Positions 18,591 to 35,623 of a DNA stretch of 64,000 bases are shown piece by piece. Position numbers and translations under genes: made by a program. Every line of letters starts with the position of its first letter. Positions within the stretch are counted from its first letter, which is position 1. The DNA is from Rhodospirillales bacterium (GTDB taxonomy: Bacteria > Pseudomonadota > Alphaproteobacteria > Bin95): assembly GCA_038143065.1 (NCBI GenBank), contig JAYQLI010000035.1, positions 2,304,894 to 2,368,893 of the forward strand. The letters run 5' to 3'. The notes below the pieces were generated by a model, which was not told the origin of the DNA, searched no databases, and worked only from the letters and a program-made list of their open reading frames with translations.

Positions 18591-19741
18591 ATGCATACGG
18601 CCCCGGCCAATGACGTAAGCTTTCCTCAAGGCTGCGCTATAGAAAGACTGACCCTTACAGATTTTCGAAGTCATGCCAGCTTTCGATTAGAAACCAACGC
18701 ACCAGAGGTTGTTTTGGTCGGTCCCAATGGTGCTGGAAAGACCAATGTCTTAGAGGCAATTTCTCTTCTTACCCCCGGTCGAGGAATGCGTGGAGCACGT
18801 TCAAGCGAAATTTCACGCTCAGGAAGTGTGGGAGGCTGGGCAGCAGCTGCTTTAGTGAAGGGGCCGTTAGGAGATTCGCATATCGGAGTGGGTGTTGACG
18901 CAAATCAGACTAACAACGCCCGTAAAGTCCATGTAGATGGTCATTTGCACAGGGGCCAAGTATCTCTCGCTGAGAGATTTTCTGCTCTTTGGTTGACCCC
19001 TCAAATGGATGCCCTTTTTGTAGGGCCTTCGGAAGAGCGAAGACGCTATTTGGATAGGATTGCCGCTAACTCCGACCCTGCGCATATAGGTCGCGTCGCA
19101 AATTATCGGAATGCTATGCGTCAACGACTGTCACTTCTGAAAACGGGCAGCGCTGACGTTGTCTGGATAGATGCCTTAGAGGCTGAAATGGCCAGTCGAG
19201 CTGTAGCTGTGGCAGCGGCTCGTATTGAAACAGCAGCCCGTCTAGATGCTGCGGCAGCGAGGGTGTTACAGAGTTTCCGCGCGCTCGAATCACTGTCAAA
19301 GGAATAACAGAGGATTGGCTCAATCAAATTCCGGCTTTGGAGGCAGAAGATCGACTCCGCGTGTTATTAAAGGAGGAGCGGCGTCGAGATTCGGAGACAG
19401 GAGTTACCTCCTCTGGGCCTCATCGAAGCGATATGGTTGTAATGGATCGAGCTCGTGAACTATCTGCGGCCAGTGGTTCTACAGGTGAACAGAAAGCCCT
19501 TCTTGTTTCGCTGACCTTTGCATCCGCACGCATGATAAAAGACGCTACTGGTTGTTCCCCAGCATTACTTTTGGATGAGGTTGCAGCACATTTTGATCCC
19601 AATAGAAGGCGCGTTCTTTTTGATGAAGCATTAGAGCTTGGGGGACAGGTTTGGATTACGGGCGCTGATAAATCACAACTTCGAGAACTTGCAGACCGAG
19701 CTGATTGGCATTGTATAAGTCAGGGCTCTGACAAAAATTAA
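18591..19741 (+). CDS. recF: DNA replication/repair protein RecF, frameshift near 19260
   Basis: LTDFRS, GPNGAGKTNVLEAIS, ERRRYLDR, GPHRSD, STGEQKALL, LLLDEVAAHFD. Confidence 0.93.
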
Positions 19742-25765: not shown

Positions 25766-26110
25766 TCACTTTTTGCGTGCAAGTTTGTCCAAAAAGATGG
25801 GGTCGCCATGAGGTGTCGCTTCAGCAGCATGAGCCCAGGCGATCTGACGATTGGTCTGTTCCGAAGCTGTTGTTAAACCCTTTGCAACGATGAGTTTTTC
25901 CAGAGCTGTGAGCCAATGCAAATAATAATCATCACCATCCTGTTTTGACCCTGCACCTAGTAATTCTTGAGAAAGCGCCTCCGAGAATTCGGACCATTCG
26001 AAATTACCGCGTTTGTGTAACTCAACAGCAAGAGCAAAAGCTTGCGCCTCCCAAGGAGCTGCAAATTTAGGGCTTTCAGGAAGGTCATTAAGCTTGTTCA
26101 AGATAATCAT
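25766..26110 (-). CDS. Nitrile hydratase accessory/activator protein (P14K-like)
   Basis: FAAPWEAQAFALAV, FEWSEF, YYLHWLTALEKL, TPHG. Directly downstream of the beta subunit. Confidence 0.85.
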   Translation of the reverse strand: MIILNKLNDLPESPKFAAPWEAQAFALAVELHKRGNFEWSEFSEALSQELLGAGSKQDGDDYYLHWLTALEKLIVAKGLTTASEQTNRQIAWAHAAEATPHGDPIFLDKLARKK

Positions 26111-26747
26111 CCCAAAGATCAACATAGGTGCAGGAGTTAGGTTCAGCGTCTTTACCCCATAACTCTTCTCCTTCGAAACGAACTGCATAAAGCCACTGAG
26201 GTTTTTCACTCAGACCCGCTGCATTAGTATCGGGAAATACAAAGACGCCATGTATTCGATCAATTTTTCCTCGGCGACCTCTTACATATCGAGGTAATCG
26301 AGTGTGGTTGGCCGGGTGAATATTTTTGGCTATCACAAGATCTCCTATGCTAAATTTTGCGCTCCCAACTTCTTGTCTTCTTGCTGAACCGCCCTTTTCT
26401 AGGGCAGTTGCTACATCTTCTGCTTTCAATATTCGGGATAATGTTTTCGGCGCATTTCGAGCTTTCTTAGACTTAAGTTCGCTCTGCGAGATTAGCTTTT
26501 CGGTCAAGAAGTAGCGACTCTAACCCATGAAGCCAATGCTCATAATATGTCGTCTCCAGATATTTGCCTGGGCGCATAGTTTCTCGTGCAAAGCGGGCTT
26601 GGTCTATGTTCCATTGACCTGTAAACCCCATGGCAAGGGTAACGGCAAAGCATCTTCTTTCCCACTCTTGGCTGAATAAAGGTTCGTTTGGGTCTGGGTT
26701 TATTGGACCGTGGCCGTGGCTCCCCCAAGATCGTGTGCCCCATTCAT
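26088..26747 (-). CDS. nthB: Nitrile hydratase beta subunit, 2 frameshifts
   Basis: MNGAHDLGG start overlapping the nthA stop, [39 protein letters not shown]. Confidence 0.93.
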
Positions 26748-27352
26748 GCGTTCGACCCCACAAGCCCTGTGCCTATCATCGAGTCTCGCGTTACTATTTC
26801 GGCCAAACGATCCTCGCTCCAATTATTGGTGTCTGAAGGCTGTATGGGTAGCACTAAATATCGGGTCTCGGCTGTCGAGTCCCAAACGCGAACTTCCACA
26901 TCCTCTGAAAGCTCAACGCCAAATTCCTTTAATACTGCGCGAGGCTGCGATACGGCTCTAGCCCGATACGGGGCTGCTTTATACCAGGTTGGAGGTAACC
27001 CAAGTACCGGCCATGGGTAGCAAGAGCAGAGCGTACAGACGACTAAATTATGAATCTTTGTGGTGTTCTCTAGCACGACCATATCTTCGCCTTGCCGACC
27101 AGAATATCCCAAACTGGCTATTGCAGCTGTTGCATCGCTGAGCAGCCATGCTTTGTATTCTGGATCAGTCCAGGCCTTGGCGATTACTCGGGCACCATTT
27201 CTTGGTCCCACCTTGGTCTCGTAGGTTTCAATAAGTTGATCTAGGGCGGCGTGATCCACATAGCCTTTTTCTATTAAAAGAGATTCCAGCGCCCGGACGC
27301 GAAGTTCTGTCTCGCTTAGTTTTGATCCATTATCGTGTCCATCATGCGGCAT
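26744..27352 (-). CDS. nthA: Nitrile hydratase alpha subunit (cobalt type)
   Basis: Metal-binding motif VCTLCSCY (Thr/Tyr indicate Co type), [20 protein letters not shown]. Confidence 0.96.
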
Positions 27353-27412
27353 GGTTAGGCTCCTAGCTTAAGAACATCATTAATATCATAAAATGATTGA
27401 AGGGTTTTCACG

Positions 27413-28138
27413 ATGATTGATTTTAGGGGACGTATAGCCCTGGTAACAGGAGGGAGTAGGGGAATTGGTAGGGCGACTGCGCTAGCGCTAGGCAGAGCTG
27501 GAGCTAATGTAGCAATTAATTTTTTGACACAGGAAGATGCAGCCAATCAGGTGGCTTTGGAAATCAAGAAAATCGGCTGTAACGCCAGTATTTTTCAAGG
27601 AGATGTTTCATAATCTCTAGAAGTAGACAGAATGGTTGCTGAGATTACCGGTAAGCTTGGGACGATCGATATTCTTGTTAATAATGCTGGCCAGGCGCGA
27701 AGACTTTCCGTTGATGAGGTAACCGAAGACGATTGGGACCAGACAATGTCCATCAATCTGAAGTCTGTCTTCTTGGTAACCAGGGCGGTTCTGCCTCATA
27801 TGCGTGCTCAAAAATGGGGGCGAATTGTTAACGTATCCTCTGGAGCATCTATGACTGGAGGGTCAGTCGGTATCCATTATTCAGCCTCTAAAGGTGGCGT
27901 TGATGCACTGAGTAGAGCTTATGCGTCCCGACTGGTTAAAGAAGGAATTACGGTTAACATTGTATCACCTTCCCTGATCGATACGGACATGATCCCAGAT
28001 AAGTTAGTAGCTCAAAATATTCCTATGGGTCGCCTTGGTTTGCCGGAAGAGTGTGCAGACGCCATCGTGCAAGCAGCATCCAATGGTTTTATGACAGGTC
28101 AAACAATTTTCCTAAATGGTGGTCGTTACTTTGGTTAA
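27413..28138 (+). CDS. SDR family (FabG-like) oxidoreductase with in-frame TAA at 27611-27613
   Basis: TGGSRGIG, NNAG, YSASK, IPMGRLG. The two ORF pieces are in the same frame (GDVS*SLEVDRMV). Confidence 0.8.
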
Positions 28139-28210
28139 GATTAAAATGAGGCCATTCCAACAACTGGCAGGTCGTGGCATGCTTTCTAAATAAATCAAGG
28201 AGGAACTTTG

Positions 28211-29044
28211 ATGCCTGATAACGCCATTTTCCCCGAGCCCACACCGCTCGAAGCTCACCCCGACTATGAACCAGTTTCTGCTGCTGAGTTGGTAGAGCTC
28301 AATGACCGGCTCAATGTTTGTTTAAAGTTGCGCACCCTGGCTATTGGAATGAAGCAATTTCGTTCTTTAGAGGAAATGAACCAGGTAAAAGGTTTAAGAC
28401 GGCCCATGGAGGGGCGTCGCCACACCATGTGCCAGCTGGTTACTCAGAGCCGCATGGCAGGGTTTACTCTTGGAGTAACTGCGGAGAACGTCCGCCCTAA
28501 TGGTAATTGTGGAGGTGTTCACGGTATCGACCTCCCTGATGAAGGGACACTAGATGGTTCTCATATGACTGGAGTTTGGTTTGAGAATCAGACAGCGGCA
28601 GCAGCGCATCAGGAGCATATGCCGCGTCAGGTATATGGCACCTATGTAGCAACAGTAGTCTCTCCAATTCGGGCAGGGCGATTAGATCCTCCCGACATAG
28701 TTATGTTCTATGGTACCCCAGCCCAGATCATCATTTTCGTTAATGGCCTGCAGAATAAGAGGTATCGCCGTTATGACATGTCCATCACTGGCGAAAGTGC
28801 GTGTGCTGATAGCTGGGGCAAGGCTTTACTAACAAAGGATACCTCTATTTCTATCCCTTGCTTTGCAGAACGCCGTTATGGCGGTGTGGCTGATGATGAG
28901 TTGCTAATTGCAATGCCACCACACGAATTTAAGCGAGGCGTTGAAGGAATGGAGACCTTATCTAAAGTTGGTCTCCGTTACCCTATTCCACCTTATGGAC
29001 CTCATGCAGATCCATCGGAGGGAATGGGAAAATCCTATGGCTAA
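28211..29044 (+). CDS. DUF169 family protein (four spaced Cys, putative metal or Fe-S binding)
   Basis: L-x-L-R-T-x-A-I-G-M-K, HTMCQ, NCG, PDIVMFYGTPAQ, GESAC, SIPCFAERRYG, DDELLIAMP. AGGAGG SD. Confidence 0.75.
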   Translation: MPDNAIFPEPTPLEAHPDYEPVSAAELVELNDRLNVCLKLRTLAIGMKQFRSLEEMNQVKGLRRPMEGRRHTMCQLVTQSRMAGFTLGVTAENVRPNGNCGGVHGIDLPDEGTLDGSHMTGVWFENQTAAAAHQEHMPRQVYGTYVATVVSPIRAGRLDPPDIVMFYGTPAQIIIFVNGLQNKRYRRYDMSITGESACADSWGKALLTKDTSISIPCFAERRYGGVADDELLIAMPPHEFKRGVEGMETLSKVGLRYPIPPYGPHADPSEGMGKSYG

Positions 29045-30040
29045 TACTGCTCGGCCGACCACCCGTCGTTTGCAGCAAATGGTGCGTGCTTACCGTGAAG
29101 CGGGCGCCCTGATGGCTGCAGTGGAGCTCGACCTTTTTACTCATATAGCCAGCGGGGCAGATGATGAGTCATCTCTGACCAAAGCTATGGGACTCCAGCC
29201 GCTTCATGGCGAAAGAATCATCATAGCGATGCTTGGGCTTGGTCTTTTGGAACGAACGGCCGGCAAGCTCACACTTGCTGACGACGTCGAGCGATTTTTA
29301 GTGAAAGGTAAAGCAAGCTATGCCGGCGAGTGGATGCTATTTACCAAACCTGATTGGGACGATTGGGGAAAATTATCGGAAATTTTAAAAGAAAAAGCTC
29401 CTCCGGTATTGGAGAATAAGACTGTTGCGGGGATTACTGTCCAAGAGGCTAGACGCTATCACCGAGGAACATACTCGATTGGACGTGGTGCTGGTCGACT
29501 ATTTCTTAATCAGGTTGATCTCACGGGCAAAAAACTGTTGATGGATATTGGAGGGGGTCGGGCGCCTATTGTATTGAGGCTTGCAAGCGCTACCCGGATC
29601 TCAAGGCTGTTGTCTTAGAAATGCCTGCTGTGGTGCCGGTTACTCAAGAATTTATAGATGAGAGTGGCCTTGCTAATCGAATTGAGGCTCGAGTTTGTGA
29701 TTTCAATCATGATCCTTTCCCTGAGGGAGCAGATATAGCCGTTATGGCATCTAACTTGCCTATGTATGGTCGAGAAGCGATTGGAGCCGTTGTGCACAAG
29801 GCTTATAACGCGATGGCTCCGGGAGGGACATTTCACCTGATTGGCGAAGCTCTAGACGCAAGTCGATCTGGCCCTTCAGACCCTGCCCTTTGGGGGCTGG
29901 CCCAGGCTATTAACAACACTACAGGAATTGCGCACTCAGTTTCTGAAGTTGAGGACTACCTTTCATTAGCTGGCTTCACCAATGTAGAGACAACTCAATT
30001 TGTAGAAGGGATTTTGCAGAGAACTAGTGGACAAAAATAG
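29037..30040 (+). CDS. SAM-dependent O/S-methyltransferase (Methyltransf_2 with N-terminal dimerisation domain), frameshift near 29555
   Basis: ALMAAVELDLFT winged-helix region, MDIGGG(SG) SAM motif, LEMPAVV, CDF, APGG. Overlaps the DUF169 stop. Confidence 0.85.
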
Positions 30041-30061
30041 TCGCTCTCGGTGTCTTTCCAG

Positions 30062-30935
30062 TTAGATATCCCGTTTTGGCAAGGCCCGTCTGTAATCTCT
30101 GCGGCGTTCCCCTACAGCCTTAAGGCTTGCGGCGTTGCTGTCATTTACTCGGTTATAAATAGCTCGCCAGTCAGGGTCTCCAGGCCACTCGAATGGAGCG
30201 CGTTTTATGGTTCCATGCTCAGTTGCTTGCTCTAATAATTGAACAGCTAATCTCGAGATTTCTAGCTGCATTTTGCGATTATAGGGAGCTCCCATGGGGT
30301 TTCCGAGAGGGAAGTCTACAAACAAACAGCGGGCTACGCCGCAATGTTCCACTATATCTTTAGCAGAACCAACAACTACTGTTGGAATGCCGTTTCTTTC
30401 AAGATGGTGTGCAGTCAGACTCACGGTCTGGTGACACACTGGTCATAAAGGTACTAATAGGGCGGCATCGGCATGGTCTGAGATAACGCGAGAAAGAATT
30501 TCGGGCGCATCGTGCTCAATAGTCGTCCTGTGGCTGTACACCGTCGGCACACTATGAAATTTTGCACTTATGCCCTTAATAAGGCCTTCATATTTAAGCG
30601 TTTGTAATGCATTGATGGGGAGGTAGCTCTCTGTCTCTGGTATGAGTACTTTCTTTGTCCCAAGCAAGATTCTCATTGTAAAGCCTCTTTGGCGCGCTAG
30701 AGCCTTCGGTGGCCCCGGACCATACTTCCTTTGGAGGTGCATTCCCGGGTGGTGACCAGTTGCCTGGTGGTGCTGAGGTTACAACTATTGATATCTGAGT
30801 CTCTGTGAGAGAATTTTTTAGATGGGCGAACGGCTGTCCGTCATTACGAGCCCAGCGATAGTCGCGTTCGTATCAGAGAGCCCGGTAGTATTGACGGGTT
30901 CGTTCTATGTATCGAACAGAGGATTGATCATTCAT
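30062..30935 (-). CDS. Glycine/betaine/sarcosine/D-proline reductase component B-like (GrdB/PrdB-like) selenoprotein with UxxC motif
   Basis: In-frame TGA 30443-30445 in DAALLVPL-U-PVCHQTVSL, continuing LERNGIPTV...FVDFPLGNPMGAP. N-terminus MNDQSSVRYIERTRQYYRAL. Also carries a TGA at codon 21 and a frameshift in an AG repeat near 30630. Confidence 0.8.
30407..30439 (-). promoter_or_regulatory. Putative bacterial SECIS element
   Basis: 3 nt after the UGA: GUGUG-u-CA-c-CAGAC[CGUGA]GUCUG-ac-UG-CACAC. Apical loop about 17 nt from the UGA with GU at loop positions 2-3. Confidence 0.7.
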
Positions 30936-31023
30936 CAGAATATAATACTTCAAACAATTGATTTGCTCTAACGAAAATATTTTGCACCCTAGCGTCTAAA
31001 ACTTAATGTTTATATGTGCTTAG

Positions 31024-32296
31024 ATGAGTAAATCATTCCGAAGCTCAGGGATTTGTCCAATTAAATTTCCAGAATCAGATGGTATTCTGCACCTGTATCA
31101 AAAAACGCGTGCAGCAACTTTAGACCTTATATCAGGACTTGGGCCGGAAGATGTAACGCCTCAGTCTATGGAAGATGCCAGCCCGACGAAGTGGCATCTC
31201 GCTCATGTAAGTTGGTTTTTTGAAGAGTTTCTGCTCCGGGCTCATGCTCCTAGTTACAGGGTATTAGATGAAAGGTTTCGCTATCTCTTTAACTCTTACT
31301 ATGTGCAAGCAGGTCCGCGTTACGCGCGACCAGATCGTGGCTTGATAACACGGCCGACGTTGAAAGAAGTTTTGGCTTATCGAGAGCATGTTGATAATGC
31401 GATGACCAATTTCATTAAATCGGGAGATGCGCCACTGGATATAGTCGAACTTGGTTGTCATCACGAAATGCAGCACCAAGAATTAATACTCACCGACTTA
31501 TTGCATCTTCTATCACAAAACCCCCTTAATCCAATTTACAGAGATCAAAAGAAAGTTGATCCAATTACAACACCAGCACCCTCATGGCTGGAGTACGAGG
31601 GTGGCATGGTTGAAATAGGACACTTGGGGACAAAATTTGCTTTTGATTGTGAAGGTCCTCGGCACAGCACATTTCTCCAGCCGTATCGGCTTTCTTCACA
31701 TCTAGTCACTAATGCCGATTGGTTGAGGTTTATAGATGATGGGGGTACCAGGATCCCCGATACTGGTTATCTGATGGCTGGGCAAAAGCCCAACAGGAAT
31801 GCTGGGAAGCTCCCTTATATTGGCGGAGAGATGAAACTTCATGGAACATATTTGGATTATCTGGCGTTCAGCCTTTAAACTTTGATGCCCCCGTTTGTCA
31901 CATAAGCTTCTATGAAGCTGATGCTTATGCTTCTTGGGCAGGTAAACGCTTACCTACTGAAATTGAATGGGAGGCTGCCTCCCCAACAACTATCAAAGGT
32001 AATTTTATGGAAAGTGGCGTGTTGTGTTCTCGGCCGTCCCAAGATAACGGATTAGCCCAAATGTGGGGGGATGTCTGGGAGTGGACCGCCTCTGCGTATA
32101 GACCCTATCCAGGCTTTCGTGCCCCCGAAGGGGCCATTGGCGAATATAATGGAAAATTCATGGCAAATCAGTTTGTTCTGCGGGGGGGTCGGCTCTAACG
32201 CCAGAATTACAAATGCGTACAACCTATCGAAATTTCTTTTATCCATTCCAACGCTGGCAAATGACGGGCCTTCGCCTGGCAGAGGATATAGTGTGA
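31024..32296 (+). CDS. egtB: Ergothioneine biosynthesis sulfoxide synthase, frameshifted (about 31745 and 32185)
   Basis: [47 protein letters not shown] (DinB His triad), FGE-like domain [29 protein letters not shown]. Confidence 0.9.
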
Positions 32297-33225
32297 TGGA
32301 AACATCTTTTGCAAAGGCTCTCTTAACTGGTCTTACAAAGCGTCAAAAAAGCTTAGAGCCTAAATTTTTTTATGATGCGGAGGGTTCTCGACTTTTTGAG
32401 GAGATAACCCAGCTAGAAGCCTATTATCCTACTAGAACGGAGTTGGGTATTCTTGAGGCTAAAGCCAGTGAGATGGCGGCATTTTTAGGAACGGGTACGG
32501 TACTTGTTGAGCCTGGGGCTGGGGCTCCAACTAAGGCGCAAAAACTACTGGCGGCGATGAACAAGCCTTTGGCTTATGCTCCAGGTGATATCTCTATAGA
32601 CCATTTGGAAGAGGCAACGAGACCGTTACAAACTGAATTTCCGCAACTGACGATAACTCCATTTCAATTAGATTTTGACAATGAAATAGCACTTCCGGAA
32701 GTGGTTTCTGCTCTTGGGCCGGTGGCAATATTCTTTCCTGGTTCGACAATTGGAAATTTTTCGCCAGAGGGTGCACGGGGCCTGCTAAGGAGGTTTTGGA
32801 ATATTGAAAATTCTCAGAGCCTGCTAATCGGAGTAGATTTAAAGAAAGATAAAGCGAAGCTGGAACGTGCTTATGATGATCCTGAAGGTGTCACCGCCGC
32901 GTTTAACTTAAATCTTCTAGCTCGTGCTAATCGAGAGCTTTTAACAGATTTTGACCTTTCGAGCTTCCGTCATTTTGCCCGTTACGATGAAACTTTGGGA
33001 CGAGTAGAAATGCATCTTCAAAGCATTTGCAACCAGACAGTCAACGTTCTCGGCGAACCAATACATTTCGCGGAAGGGGAAAGTATTCATACTGAAAATT
33101 CATATAAGTTTAAAATCGCAGATTTTCAGAAAATGGCAGTGGAGTCAGGTTGGTCGCCTGTTCATGTTTGGACTGACCCAAATCATCTTTTTGCTGAATT
33201 GGCGTTTTCGAAAATTAACCCCTGA
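32296..33225 (+). CDS. egtD: L-histidine N-alpha-trimethyltransferase
   Basis: KSLEPKFFYDAEGSRLFEEIT, YYPTRTE, FFPGSTIGNF, AYDDPEGVTAAFNLN, IHTENSYKF. TGATG coupling with egtB. Confidence 0.93.
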   Translation: METSFAKALLTGLTKRQKSLEPKFFYDAEGSRLFEEITQLEAYYPTRTELGILEAKASEMAAFLGTGTVLVEPGAGAPTKAQKLLAAMNKPLAYAPGDISIDHLEEATRPLQTEFPQLTITPFQLDFDNEIALPEVVSALGPVAIFFPGSTIGNFSPEGARGLLRRFWNIENSQSLLIGVDLKKDKAKLERAYDDPEGVTAAFNLNLLARANRELLTDFDLSSFRHFARYDETLGRVEMHLQSICNQTVNVLGEPIHFAEGESIHTENSYKFKIADFQKMAVESGWSPVHVWTDPNHLFAELAFSKINP

Positions 33226-35623
33226 GTTGGCCACCAGTTGCCTTCTCGACTGCTTTGACAACCTTGGAAGAGAGTGACTCGATATCAGCATCAGTTAGAG
33301 TAGCGTTCGTGGGTTGGAACGTAACTGAGATAGCTACCGATTTCTGACCATTTTCAATCCCTTTTCCTTGGTAAGAATCAAAAGCCTCAGCTTCAGTAAT
33401 CATTTCCCGATCAGCTAGACGTGCTGCGGTCACTGCTTTTGCTGCAGGAACATCAGCATCCATAATGAAGGCAAAATCACGGTCGACTGGTAGGAGAGAA
33501 TCTAATTTCAAAAACGTCTTTGTCTTGCCCAGTTGTTTACGGCGCGGCTCTGGTGGCGCATTTATGAAGACTTCAAAAGCCACCACCGCGGTTTCAATAT
33601 CATAGTGATTAGTGATTTTTGGGTGTATTTCACCGAAACGAGCTAATAAATTTTTTCCTAGACATATTTCTCCTGACCGCCTGGGGTGTTGCCAAGACTG
33701 AGCAGCCTGATTAACCGGTGCTTCTGCGGGAGCACCTATCGCTGCCAACGCCGCTAGTGCATCTGCTTTCACGTCGAAGACATCCACAGACCGTGATTGA
33801 TCGGACCAATGGCGAGGTATCGCGTCACCCCAGCGTACACCCGCGGCAACCCAATCCTGTCCATCCTCACTCGGATCTAGATAAATGGGGCCAACTTCAA
33901 AAAGAGCTCCAGAACGCTTGGATCGCGCAAAATTTCTAGAAGCGGCAGCTAATAGGTTAGGAATTATAGAGGGCCGCATGCAGTCTAAGTCGGCACTAAT
34001 TGGATTATCTAAAACGAGGCACTCGTTGCCTCCACCAAAGAGAACTGCATCTTCTTGCTTCATGAATGAGAAGGTAAGGGCCTCAGTCATGCCTCGACCG
34101 GCCAGAGCTCGACGCGCTCGAACCCGCCGAGCCTGTAATAAATTTAGCGCTGCGGTTGGTTGATTTCCAATTTGAGACAACGGAACAGCTTTTATGGTGT
34201 CAAATCCATGGATACGAGTGACCTCTTCAACCAAGTCGGCCTCGCCATCGATGTCAGGGCGCCATGAGGGTGGTACAGTTTCTATTTTGTTGTTTGCTTC
34301 GCTTGGTTCAAAGCCGAGGACATTCAGAATTCGAATTTGCTCAGTTTTGTCTATTTCGATACCAGCTAATTCCAAAGTACGATTTGGGCGAAGGCTAATA
34401 TTGCGTTTCCATTTAGGCGTCTCGCCAGCGAAAACTACTTCGCTTGGTTCGCCGCCGCATAGTTCCAAGATCATAGCAGTAGCGGCTTCAATACCAGGTA
34501 AAAGACTTTCTGGGTCTACCCCTCTCTCAAAGCGATAGCGAGCGTCAGAATGAATGTTTAACTTGCGCCCGGTGGAGGCTGTCCGAAGGGGGTCAAACCA
34601 AGCGCTTTCAACAAAAACCTCTGTGGTCTCATCGGTGCAGCCAGTTTCTTCGCCGCCTATGATCCCGCCGAGTGCGTGGGGAAGCGTCTGATCCCCTATT
34701 ACTGTCATTTCACTATCAAGTTCATATGTTTTGTTATCGAGAGCAGCCAGTGTTTCACCCGGGCGAGCGAGCCGCGCAGTGATGTCTCCGCTGAGTTTAC
34801 TAACATCAAAGACATGAAGAGGGCGGGCTGCGTCCATTGTAAAAAAGTTAGTGATATCTACCAAAGCAGAGATTGGTCTAAGTCCTATTGCCCGGAGCCT
34901 GTCCTGCAACCAACGTGGGCTCGGGCCGTTTTTAACTCCGCGAATATGCCGCCCAGCAAAGGCTGCGCATGCCGTCCTAGCGTTTTCTGGAAAATCCAGA
35001 TGGACATTTATAGGACTTTTAAACGTACCCGTAACTTTCTGGTCCCAACCAGGTACTCTTTTAAGAGCACCAAGCCCTGCTGCTGCGAGGTCCCGGGCTA
35101 TGCCGCGGACACCAGCGCAGTCACCACGATTAGGAGTTAGTCCAATTTCGATAATTGGATCATCAAGGCCTGCTACTTTTGAGTAAGGCGCACCAATTTG
35201 TGTATCTGCCGGCAGTTCAATAATACCGTCATGATCGTCGGAGAGCTGAAGCTCTCGCTCAGAACACAGCATTCCATGCGATCCGACACCACGAATTTCC
35301 GCATCTTTTAGCGTAAAGTCTGTCCCTGGAATGTAGGTGCCAGATGGCGCAAAAACGCCAACCATGCCTTCTCTTGCATTTGGCGCACCACATACAACTT
35401 GAATCTCTGAGGAACCTGTGTCGACAACGCACACTTTTAGCCGATCGGCATTTGGATGTTGGGTTGCTGAAATTACACGAGCCGTTTGAAAAGCTGATAA
35501 GGCGGGGCCCTTGTCGACTACAGAGTCTACCTCGAGACCAATCATTGTAAGTTTGTCGCAAATCTCTTGGAGACTAGCTTCCGTATCCAGGTGTTCTTTA
35601 AGCCAAGATAGTGTGAACTTCAT
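33215..35623 (-). CDS. pheT: Phenylalanine-tRNA ligase beta subunit
   Basis: [50 protein letters not shown]. Confidence 0.98.

Follow-up and report, generated by a model that had tools for sequence, protein, structure and literature searches.

Among selenoproteins built on a UxxC motif, the closest described systems are PrdB of Clostridium sticklandii and C. difficile (TIGR04483), the related proteins GrdB, GrdF and GrdH (PF07355, TIGR01918), and a marine family that carries the PrdB name. In the available text of reviews from 2022 and 2026, function is described for the clostridial enzyme only. The marine family was reported by Zhang, Fomenko and Gladyshev (2005; PMC1088965) as 42 Sargasso Sea selenoproteins with UxxC under the name 'Proline reductase PrdB', and again by Zhang and Gladyshev (2008; PMC2398784), whose GOS Table 2 gives 235 Sec and 110 Cys forms from oxic surface waters. 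In the accessible parts of the supplements, members of the earlier set read ..LLVPLuPVCHQTVGLVARHLESNGIPTV..DFPLGNP, with PVCHQ occurring 14 times, while 86 PVCHQ motifs stand under '#Proline reductase' in the later one. A literature search for 'PrdB-like' with 'selenoprotein' returned no paper; the family is listed as 'Proline reductase PrdB'.

We analyzed a 64,000-nt stretch of DNA assembled from a Rhodospirillales bacterium, referred to here as the window. On its minus strand, ORFs 30443-30742 and 30062-30439 share one frame and are separated solely by the TGA at 30443-30445, giving LLVPL-U-PVCHQTVSL, just as an earlier note on this DNA had read them; the translation across the TGA runs ...DAALLVPL-U-PVCHQTVSLTAHHLE... 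That note had presented the gene as hidden. The accessible parts of the 2005 and 2008 papers (PMC1088965, PMC2398784) already list its family and motif, and the locus is, as far as can be predicted from sequence, a new stand-alone member of the known PrdB-like UxxC selenoprotein family. Compared by eye and at the level of the motif with the part of the supplement at hand, the two have LLVPLuPVCHQTV...DFPLGNP in common. They further share an in-frame TGA at the start of UxxC, Cys homologues at that column and a SECIS-like hairpin 3' of the UGA. Nothing essential sets the window gene apart; its genome is estuarine/marine alphaproteobacterium-like, and this copy carries two extra defects.

As assembled, the span 30062-30935 is 874 nt, which is no multiple of three, and does not form a single open frame. 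The frame from the ATG at 30935 opens MNDQSSVRYIERTRQYYRAL... and meets a second TGA at codon 21 (30873-30875), and after ...THTRDRE the N-terminal frame is out of register with the C-terminal one, 2 nt being missing near 30626-30633. The earlier note had proposed one selenoprotein of about 290 residues. A protein of this size is encoded in the nearest genome, which belongs to the same genus (G008; 873 nt plus stop, 291 aa), and in the public sequencing runs described below, whereas the window's own sequence is broken by the codon-21 TGA and the frameshift. The features of the locus are as follows.

30062..30935, minus strand: PrdB-like selenoprotein gene, 874 nt as assembled, with 94% nucleotide identity to G008 over 1126 nt
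30933..30935, minus strand: ATG start codon, the same start as in G008
30873..30875, minus strand: TGA at codon 21, an invariant Gly in the family; most probably a consensus error and not a Sec codon
30626..30633, minus strand: short AG/CT repeat with 2 nt missing, where the frame shifts between ..THTRDRE and SYLPINAL..
30443..30445, minus strand: predicted UGA Sec codon, residue 165 of the intact protein and first of U-P-V-C
30434..30436, minus strand: TGT codon of the putative resolving Cys168 of UxxC, invariant in 28 sequences
30415..30431, minus strand: conserved core of the predicted SECIS, a 6-bp stem (here 5 bp and a C.A mismatch) with loop CGUGA, 11 nt after the UGA
30407..30439, minus strand: long hairpin made of the core and an outer helix, the minimum-energy structure; the outer helix is not conserved
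30062..30064, minus strand: TAA stop codon

We examined how relatives are encoded at the TGA of 30443-30445. In 20 of 20 loci fetched from relatives, the TGA was followed by P[VITL]C[HN]Q, with frames open on both sides. Matches were present in 30 of 41 related genomes, and among the matches listed, 103 of 106 contained exactly one TGA, the other three being one out-of-frame piece and two TGA-free paralogues. The best 80 loci of species representatives from other phyla (covering Alpha-, Beta- and Gammaproteobacteria, Myxococcota, Chloroflexota and Acidimicrobiia) carried TGA in 77 cases and TGC or TGT in 2, with one codon unreadable. Thus, the earlier note's expectation of Cys or TGA at this column was borne out, with TGA in all 20 relatives and in 77 of the 79 other loci, and Cys in two. 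At the protein level, a search returned 1281 relatives at E <= 1e-3, mostly continuous proteins of 286-326 aa, with entries of only 125-226 aa also among the matches. In an alignment of 17 homologues, the column of the TGA at 30443-30445 was Cys in 16 and Trp in one, and the column of the codon-21 TGA was Gly in all 17 (YYRALGY); G21 and C168 were invariant in 28 aligned sequences. The Trp belongs to homologue P0042 (LVPIWPVCHQ) and could stem from a genuine TGG codon or from a TGA that was translated as Trp. The codon also held at the level of individual assemblies: in X1, one of the public runs described below, the contig spanning the gene differed from the window at 16 positions in all, none of them at 30443-30445, and G008 has the same TGA and the same following ~50-60 nt. 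On this evidence of conservation, the TGA at 30443-30445 is a conserved codon predicted to specify selenocysteine.

Next, we analyzed the region downstream of the UGA, where the earlier note had described a hairpin with GU in its apical loop. The hairpin is present at 30407-30439, begins 3 nt after the TGA and is the minimum-energy fold of the 61 nt that follow it, with outer arms GUGUGU/GCACAC, inner arms CAGAC/GUCUG and the loop CGUGA. Its energy (-13.5 kcal/mol) is at chance level, with z = -0.32 and 75 of 200 shuffles folding at least as well. Thus, it is conservation and not folding energy that lifts the hairpin above chance. After the UGA, 20 of 20 relatives carried the same 15 nt CAGACCGTGAGTCTG, five third-codon positions among them, although their proteins are only 38-92% identical. 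Across 94 TGA forms (89 distinct sequences), the inner helix, formed by alignment columns 18-23 with 29-34 (window 30426-30431 with 30415-30420), was paired in 97.6% of cells. It contains two compensatory pairs, one occurring as C-G 68 times and U-A 13 times, the other as G-C 76, A-U 10 and G-U 2 times. In none of 500 shuffles was the covariation score or the count of doubly changed cells as high as observed, and slid controls all remained below the observed covariation. The outer helix was paired in only 68.4% of cells and is therefore not a conserved feature of the long hairpin. Both Cys forms use other synonymous codons (QTISL), and the stem cannot form in them. The sixth pair of the core is a C.A mismatch in the window copy and in G008.

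The spacing of 11 nt from the UGA and the GU in the apical loop match the canonical bacterial SECIS geometry. Like the fdhF-type SECIS of Escherichia coli, the element is a stem-loop 11 nt after the UGA, has GU in its loop and lies inside the coding sequence; it differs in its short core (6 bp with a 5-nt loop) and in matching no Rfam family. Over 30250-30550, Rfam gave no SECIS-type match and only two chance-level rows. By its position and covariation, the conserved stem-loop is a putative SECIS-type element.

The genome of the window also contains the machinery that the earlier note had proposed looking for, namely, selA, selB, selD and a tRNA-Sec (71.5 bits, anticodon TCA). In the assembly, selA (C35:594751-596061) has two frameshifts near its 3' end. 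Two paralogues of the PrdB-like gene (C35:1680963-1681511 and C35:2092638-2093273) belong to the same superfamily and each hold a single in-frame TGA; one of them, of ~310 aa, has the form UPVCHQTVC, and the other is a longer UPNC form (444 aa stop-to-stop) that scores above the Pfam GRDB cut-off.

We then compared the protein with curated families, as the earlier note had called it GrdB/PrdB-like. The nearest NCBIfam model for the C-terminal piece was indeed PrdB (TIGR04483; E 1.3e-17, 64 bits), with weaker matches to the GrdH, GrdF and GrdB models. The name holds only in a distant sense, as every one of these scores is below its cut-off, which is 300 for TIGR04483, and Pfam assigned no family at E <= 0.01 to the window's pieces, PF07355 included. 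Intact relatives behaved likewise, reaching 70-90 bits on TIGR04483 (E down to 1.9e-25), 24-41 bits on the selenoprotein-B subfamily model TIGR01918 (cut-off 65.45) and 11.6-15.4 bits on Pfam GRDB PF07355 (cut-off 22). Since the Pfam and NCBIfam scores are below the cut-offs, the gene is a distant full-length relative of PrdB that lies outside the curated families. The match to clostridial PrdB covers model positions 18-227 of 238 in one relative (E 1.9e-25), with the UxxC Sec motif at the same place; the family of the window gene differs by ~35 extra N-terminal and ~45 extra C-terminal residues. With GrdB, GrdF and GrdH it shares UxxC, and its residues ~100-240 are distantly homologous to their C-terminal third. 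However, it is ~290 aa long as compared to ~435 aa for GrdB, and its motif is UPVCHQ, while the available part of the 2026 review gives UxxCxxC for GrdB.

To place the two extra defects, we compared the window with G008, in which a 27,247-nt contig is colinear with 14635-41875 at 96.4% identity, and, over 27000-33500, with Logan contigs built from four public runs. Three studies supplied these runs (estuary, marine and one organism-labelled), which represent near-identical but distinct strains and are not reads of the source sample. At codon 21, G008 has GGA instead of TGA, and all four runs have C for A at 30875, which also gives GGA. G008 has two more bases at the frameshift site, and all four runs insert CT behind 30626, restoring ...RDRESYLPI... 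as in homologues and G008. At 6 further positions, G008 has the same letter as the window and X1 does not. Among 20 positions inspected, at which at least three of the four runs differed from the window, 7 were not private and 13 were window-private substitutions. Of these 13, which come from 6.5 kb, five fall within the 874-nt gene, somewhat above an even spread of errors and also compatible with relaxed selection; in GVPRF, two of them replace nearly invariant residues, P by A and F by C.

The same comparison revealed damage well beyond this gene. The window and G008 are separated by 15 indel events. In 12 of them a homopolymer of three or more bases changes in length, and the other three lie beside a G-run, in the CT/AG repeat of this gene and at a site without a repeat. 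Nine genes are broken in the window and whole in G008: those for a GNAT acetyltransferase, recF (broken at 19264), gyrB (split at a G-run, 21496), a CoA-transferase, nitrile hydratase beta, an SDR, an O-methyltransferase, the PrdB-like protein and egtB. The four runs repair the SDR, methyltransferase and egtB lesions as well. Elsewhere in the genome, rpoB (C35:2660058-2664196) falls into two frames at a run of four A (A4) that would have to be A5 for the reading to continue; it is in a single frame in the four same-genus genomes in which it was found, a fifth (87% complete) giving no match. One of the two tuf copies (C35:2655176-2656039 and C35:2671837-2672703) has lost its frame to a surplus A within an A-run; in the other, V takes the place of the E found in the AIREGGRTVG of its twin. 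Because a cell with gyrB, rpoB and both tuf copies damaged would not be viable, the assembly must carry consensus errors of both the indel and the substitution type. In the region of the window, we estimate roughly one such error per 1-2 kb.

Three other readings of the defects were rejected. The codon-21 TGA does not encode a second Sec, as the column is invariant Gly and G008 and the runs have GGA. A programmed frameshift at the AG repeat does not apply, since relatives and runs are in frame. A code in which TGA is read as Gly (table 25) does not fit either, with the other TGA at the Cys/Sec column and ordinary genes ending in TGA-free frames.

Two rival explanations have to be weighed against a functional selenoprotein gene. 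If the TGA at 30443-30445 were an ordinary stop, the two ORFs would be separate or truncated products without selenocysteine. Gene callers and protein databases do split such genes, which is in line with the short entries of 125-226 aa among the matches, and the folding energy of the hairpin is unexceptional. Yet a stop would not account for a TGA that keeps to the same column in different phyla and is flanked by open frames on either side, for Cys homologues that run continuously through that column, for a covarying hairpin at the canonical spacing or for a genome equipped with Sec machinery, and we regard this explanation as extremely improbable. The extra defects raise a different alternative, namely, that the gene is a true, freshly inactivated pseudogene private to this strain, in which the Gly21 nonsense codon, the 2-nt deletion and the damaging substitutions are all real. 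The concentration of 5 of the 13 private substitutions in one gene (including G21 to stop, P to A and F to C), on top of a frameshift, would agree with this, as would the fact that the runs compared come from strains other than that of the source sample. Against it, the same assembly breaks essential genes in like manner, both inside the window (gyrB, recF) and outside it (rpoB, tuf, selA), rpoB is whole in all four relatives in which it was found, G008 and all four runs carry the intact form, and the Sec codon and the ~50-60 nt after it are untouched relative to G008. A pseudogene is thus unlikely, although clearly less so than an ordinary stop. Because the same assembly breaks gyrB, recF, rpoB, one tuf copy and selA, mostly at homopolymers, the codon-21 TGA and the 2-nt loss are very probably consensus errors of an error-prone assembly. 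Taken as a whole, the locus is very probably a genuine gene whose product is a stand-alone PrdB-like selenoprotein of 291 residues, with the UGA encoding Sec and the other two defects being consensus errors.

The intact protein of G008 was modeled with AlphaFold from a 28-row alignment (pLDDT 90.3, pTM 0.90). In the model, strand 158-162 is followed by U165 and then by helix 166-181, which places UxxC at a helix N terminus, like redox CxxC centers. A wide VIA-align search gave only generic Rossmann-like, LacI/PBP and SDR rows (Z 7.3-9.2), Foldseek matched no PDB entry at E <= 0.001, and a profile search of solved structures gave unrelated chains at best (E 0.59 and 0.98). With neither sequence profiles nor fold searches returning a specific match, no specific solved relative can be named.

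These features suggest how the gene may work. The UGA at 30443-30445 would be decoded as selenocysteine, SelB with Sec-tRNA(Sec) presumably being recruited, as in the canonical bacterial mechanism, by the stem-loop YCAGAC-CGUGA-GUCUGR that starts 11 nt after the UGA. The product would be a Rossmann-like alpha/beta protein with U165-P-V-C168 at a helix N terminus. Most likely, it would cycle between a selenol/thiol and a selenenylsulfide, reducing some substrate, and would be re-reduced by a thiol system. Such a reductase would act without PrdA, GrdA or GrdE as partners.

Subsequently, we examined the neighborhood of the gene. It is monocistronic, convergent with the O-methyltransferase gene and divergent from an egtB-egtD pair at 31024-33225 (plus strand), in which egtB (DinB_2 and FGE-sulfatase) has assembly breaks near 31740 and 32182 and egtD encodes a histidine methyltransferase (~32296-33225). 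Scans for promoters and terminators gave results at shuffle level only. On the other side lie nitrile hydratase beta and alpha genes (26090-27367, minus strand; beta broken at 26500 and 26727), the SDR gene (27413-28138, plus strand), whose in-frame TAA at 27611-27613 is CAA in G008 and in all four runs, a DUF169 gene (28208-29044, plus strand) and then the O-methyltransferase gene (28908-30040, plus strand), frameshifted at the G-run 29552-29558. G008 shares the egtB neighbor, and so does G007, the protein of which is 59-61% identical; the adjacency is seen in all three readable loci of the ortholog group (the window's genome, G008 and G007), which amount to two independent observations. Among the neighbors of 98 loci, egtB adjacency was not seen outside the genus, and clustering of these neighbors revealed no dominant partner gene, the largest real clusters being CoA-transferase III (12 of 98 loci) and SDR (8 of 98); two larger apparent clusters consisted of spurious antisense ORFs lying on top of the gene. 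In a second ortholog group of the genus (L030, L034 and L036; G006, G009 and G001), the Sec gene and a TauD/TfdA-family dioxygenase gene lie on the same strand and overlap at the start of the latter, which suggests an operon.

As the earlier note had pointed out, no Stickland partner is adjacent; prdA, grdA and grdE are missing among the neighbors of the window gene, which are genes for the O-methyltransferase, EgtB and EgtD. In the whole genome (97.6% complete), we found no PF09338 (Gly_reductase) match for PrdA or GrdE and no PF04723 match for GrdA, although the control genomes were silent for both as well. A role as B subunit in a classical Stickland reductase of D-proline or glycine/betaine could be argued from the protein's best family matches, which are the PrdB, GrdH, GrdF and GrdB models, and from the common UxxC motif. 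However, 64-90 bits as compared to 300 for PrdB, 24-41 to 65.45 for TIGR01918 and 11.6-15.4 to 22 for GRDB are low scores for such a subunit. In contrast to clostridial PrdB, the protein is also found in a genome with no match to the PrdA proprotein (pyruvoyl), for which the controls were equally silent, and with an EgtB-type protein. EgtB uses O2. The low scores, the gene's neighbors and, as far as silent controls allow, the lack of GrdA and PrdA/GrdE matches make a Stickland subunit highly improbable. The earlier note's view that the role is probably not classical Stickland fermentation thus agrees with the lack of GrdA and PrdA/GrdE matches, within what silent controls allow, and the protein as predicted fits a non-Stickland role. 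The neighboring pair also raises the idea that, in this genus, the PrdB-like selenoprotein works with egtB-egtD when ergothioneine is formed or turned over, as a selenol/thiol reductase that might, for example, reduce a sulfoxide or sulfenic intermediate or cleave the betaine. We consider this a long shot, and a literature search, as far as the accessible text of its results goes, returned no paper linking the PrdB-like family to ergothioneine.

Our results have consequences for annotation as well as for the biology of the family. In annotation, the two ORFs should be merged into a single Sec gene. Homopolymer and substitution errors in this assembly mimic pseudogenes and can create a spurious second in-frame TGA, and pseudogene, frameshift or recoding calls anywhere in it need read support. 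For the family, the genomic context offers weak hints, egtB-egtD here and CoA-transferase III elsewhere, to the role of an abundant PrdB-like selenoprotein in oxic waters without PrdA, GrdA and GrdE, and a role in ergothioneine metabolism, if true, would provide the first substrate for the orphan marine 'PrdB' family.
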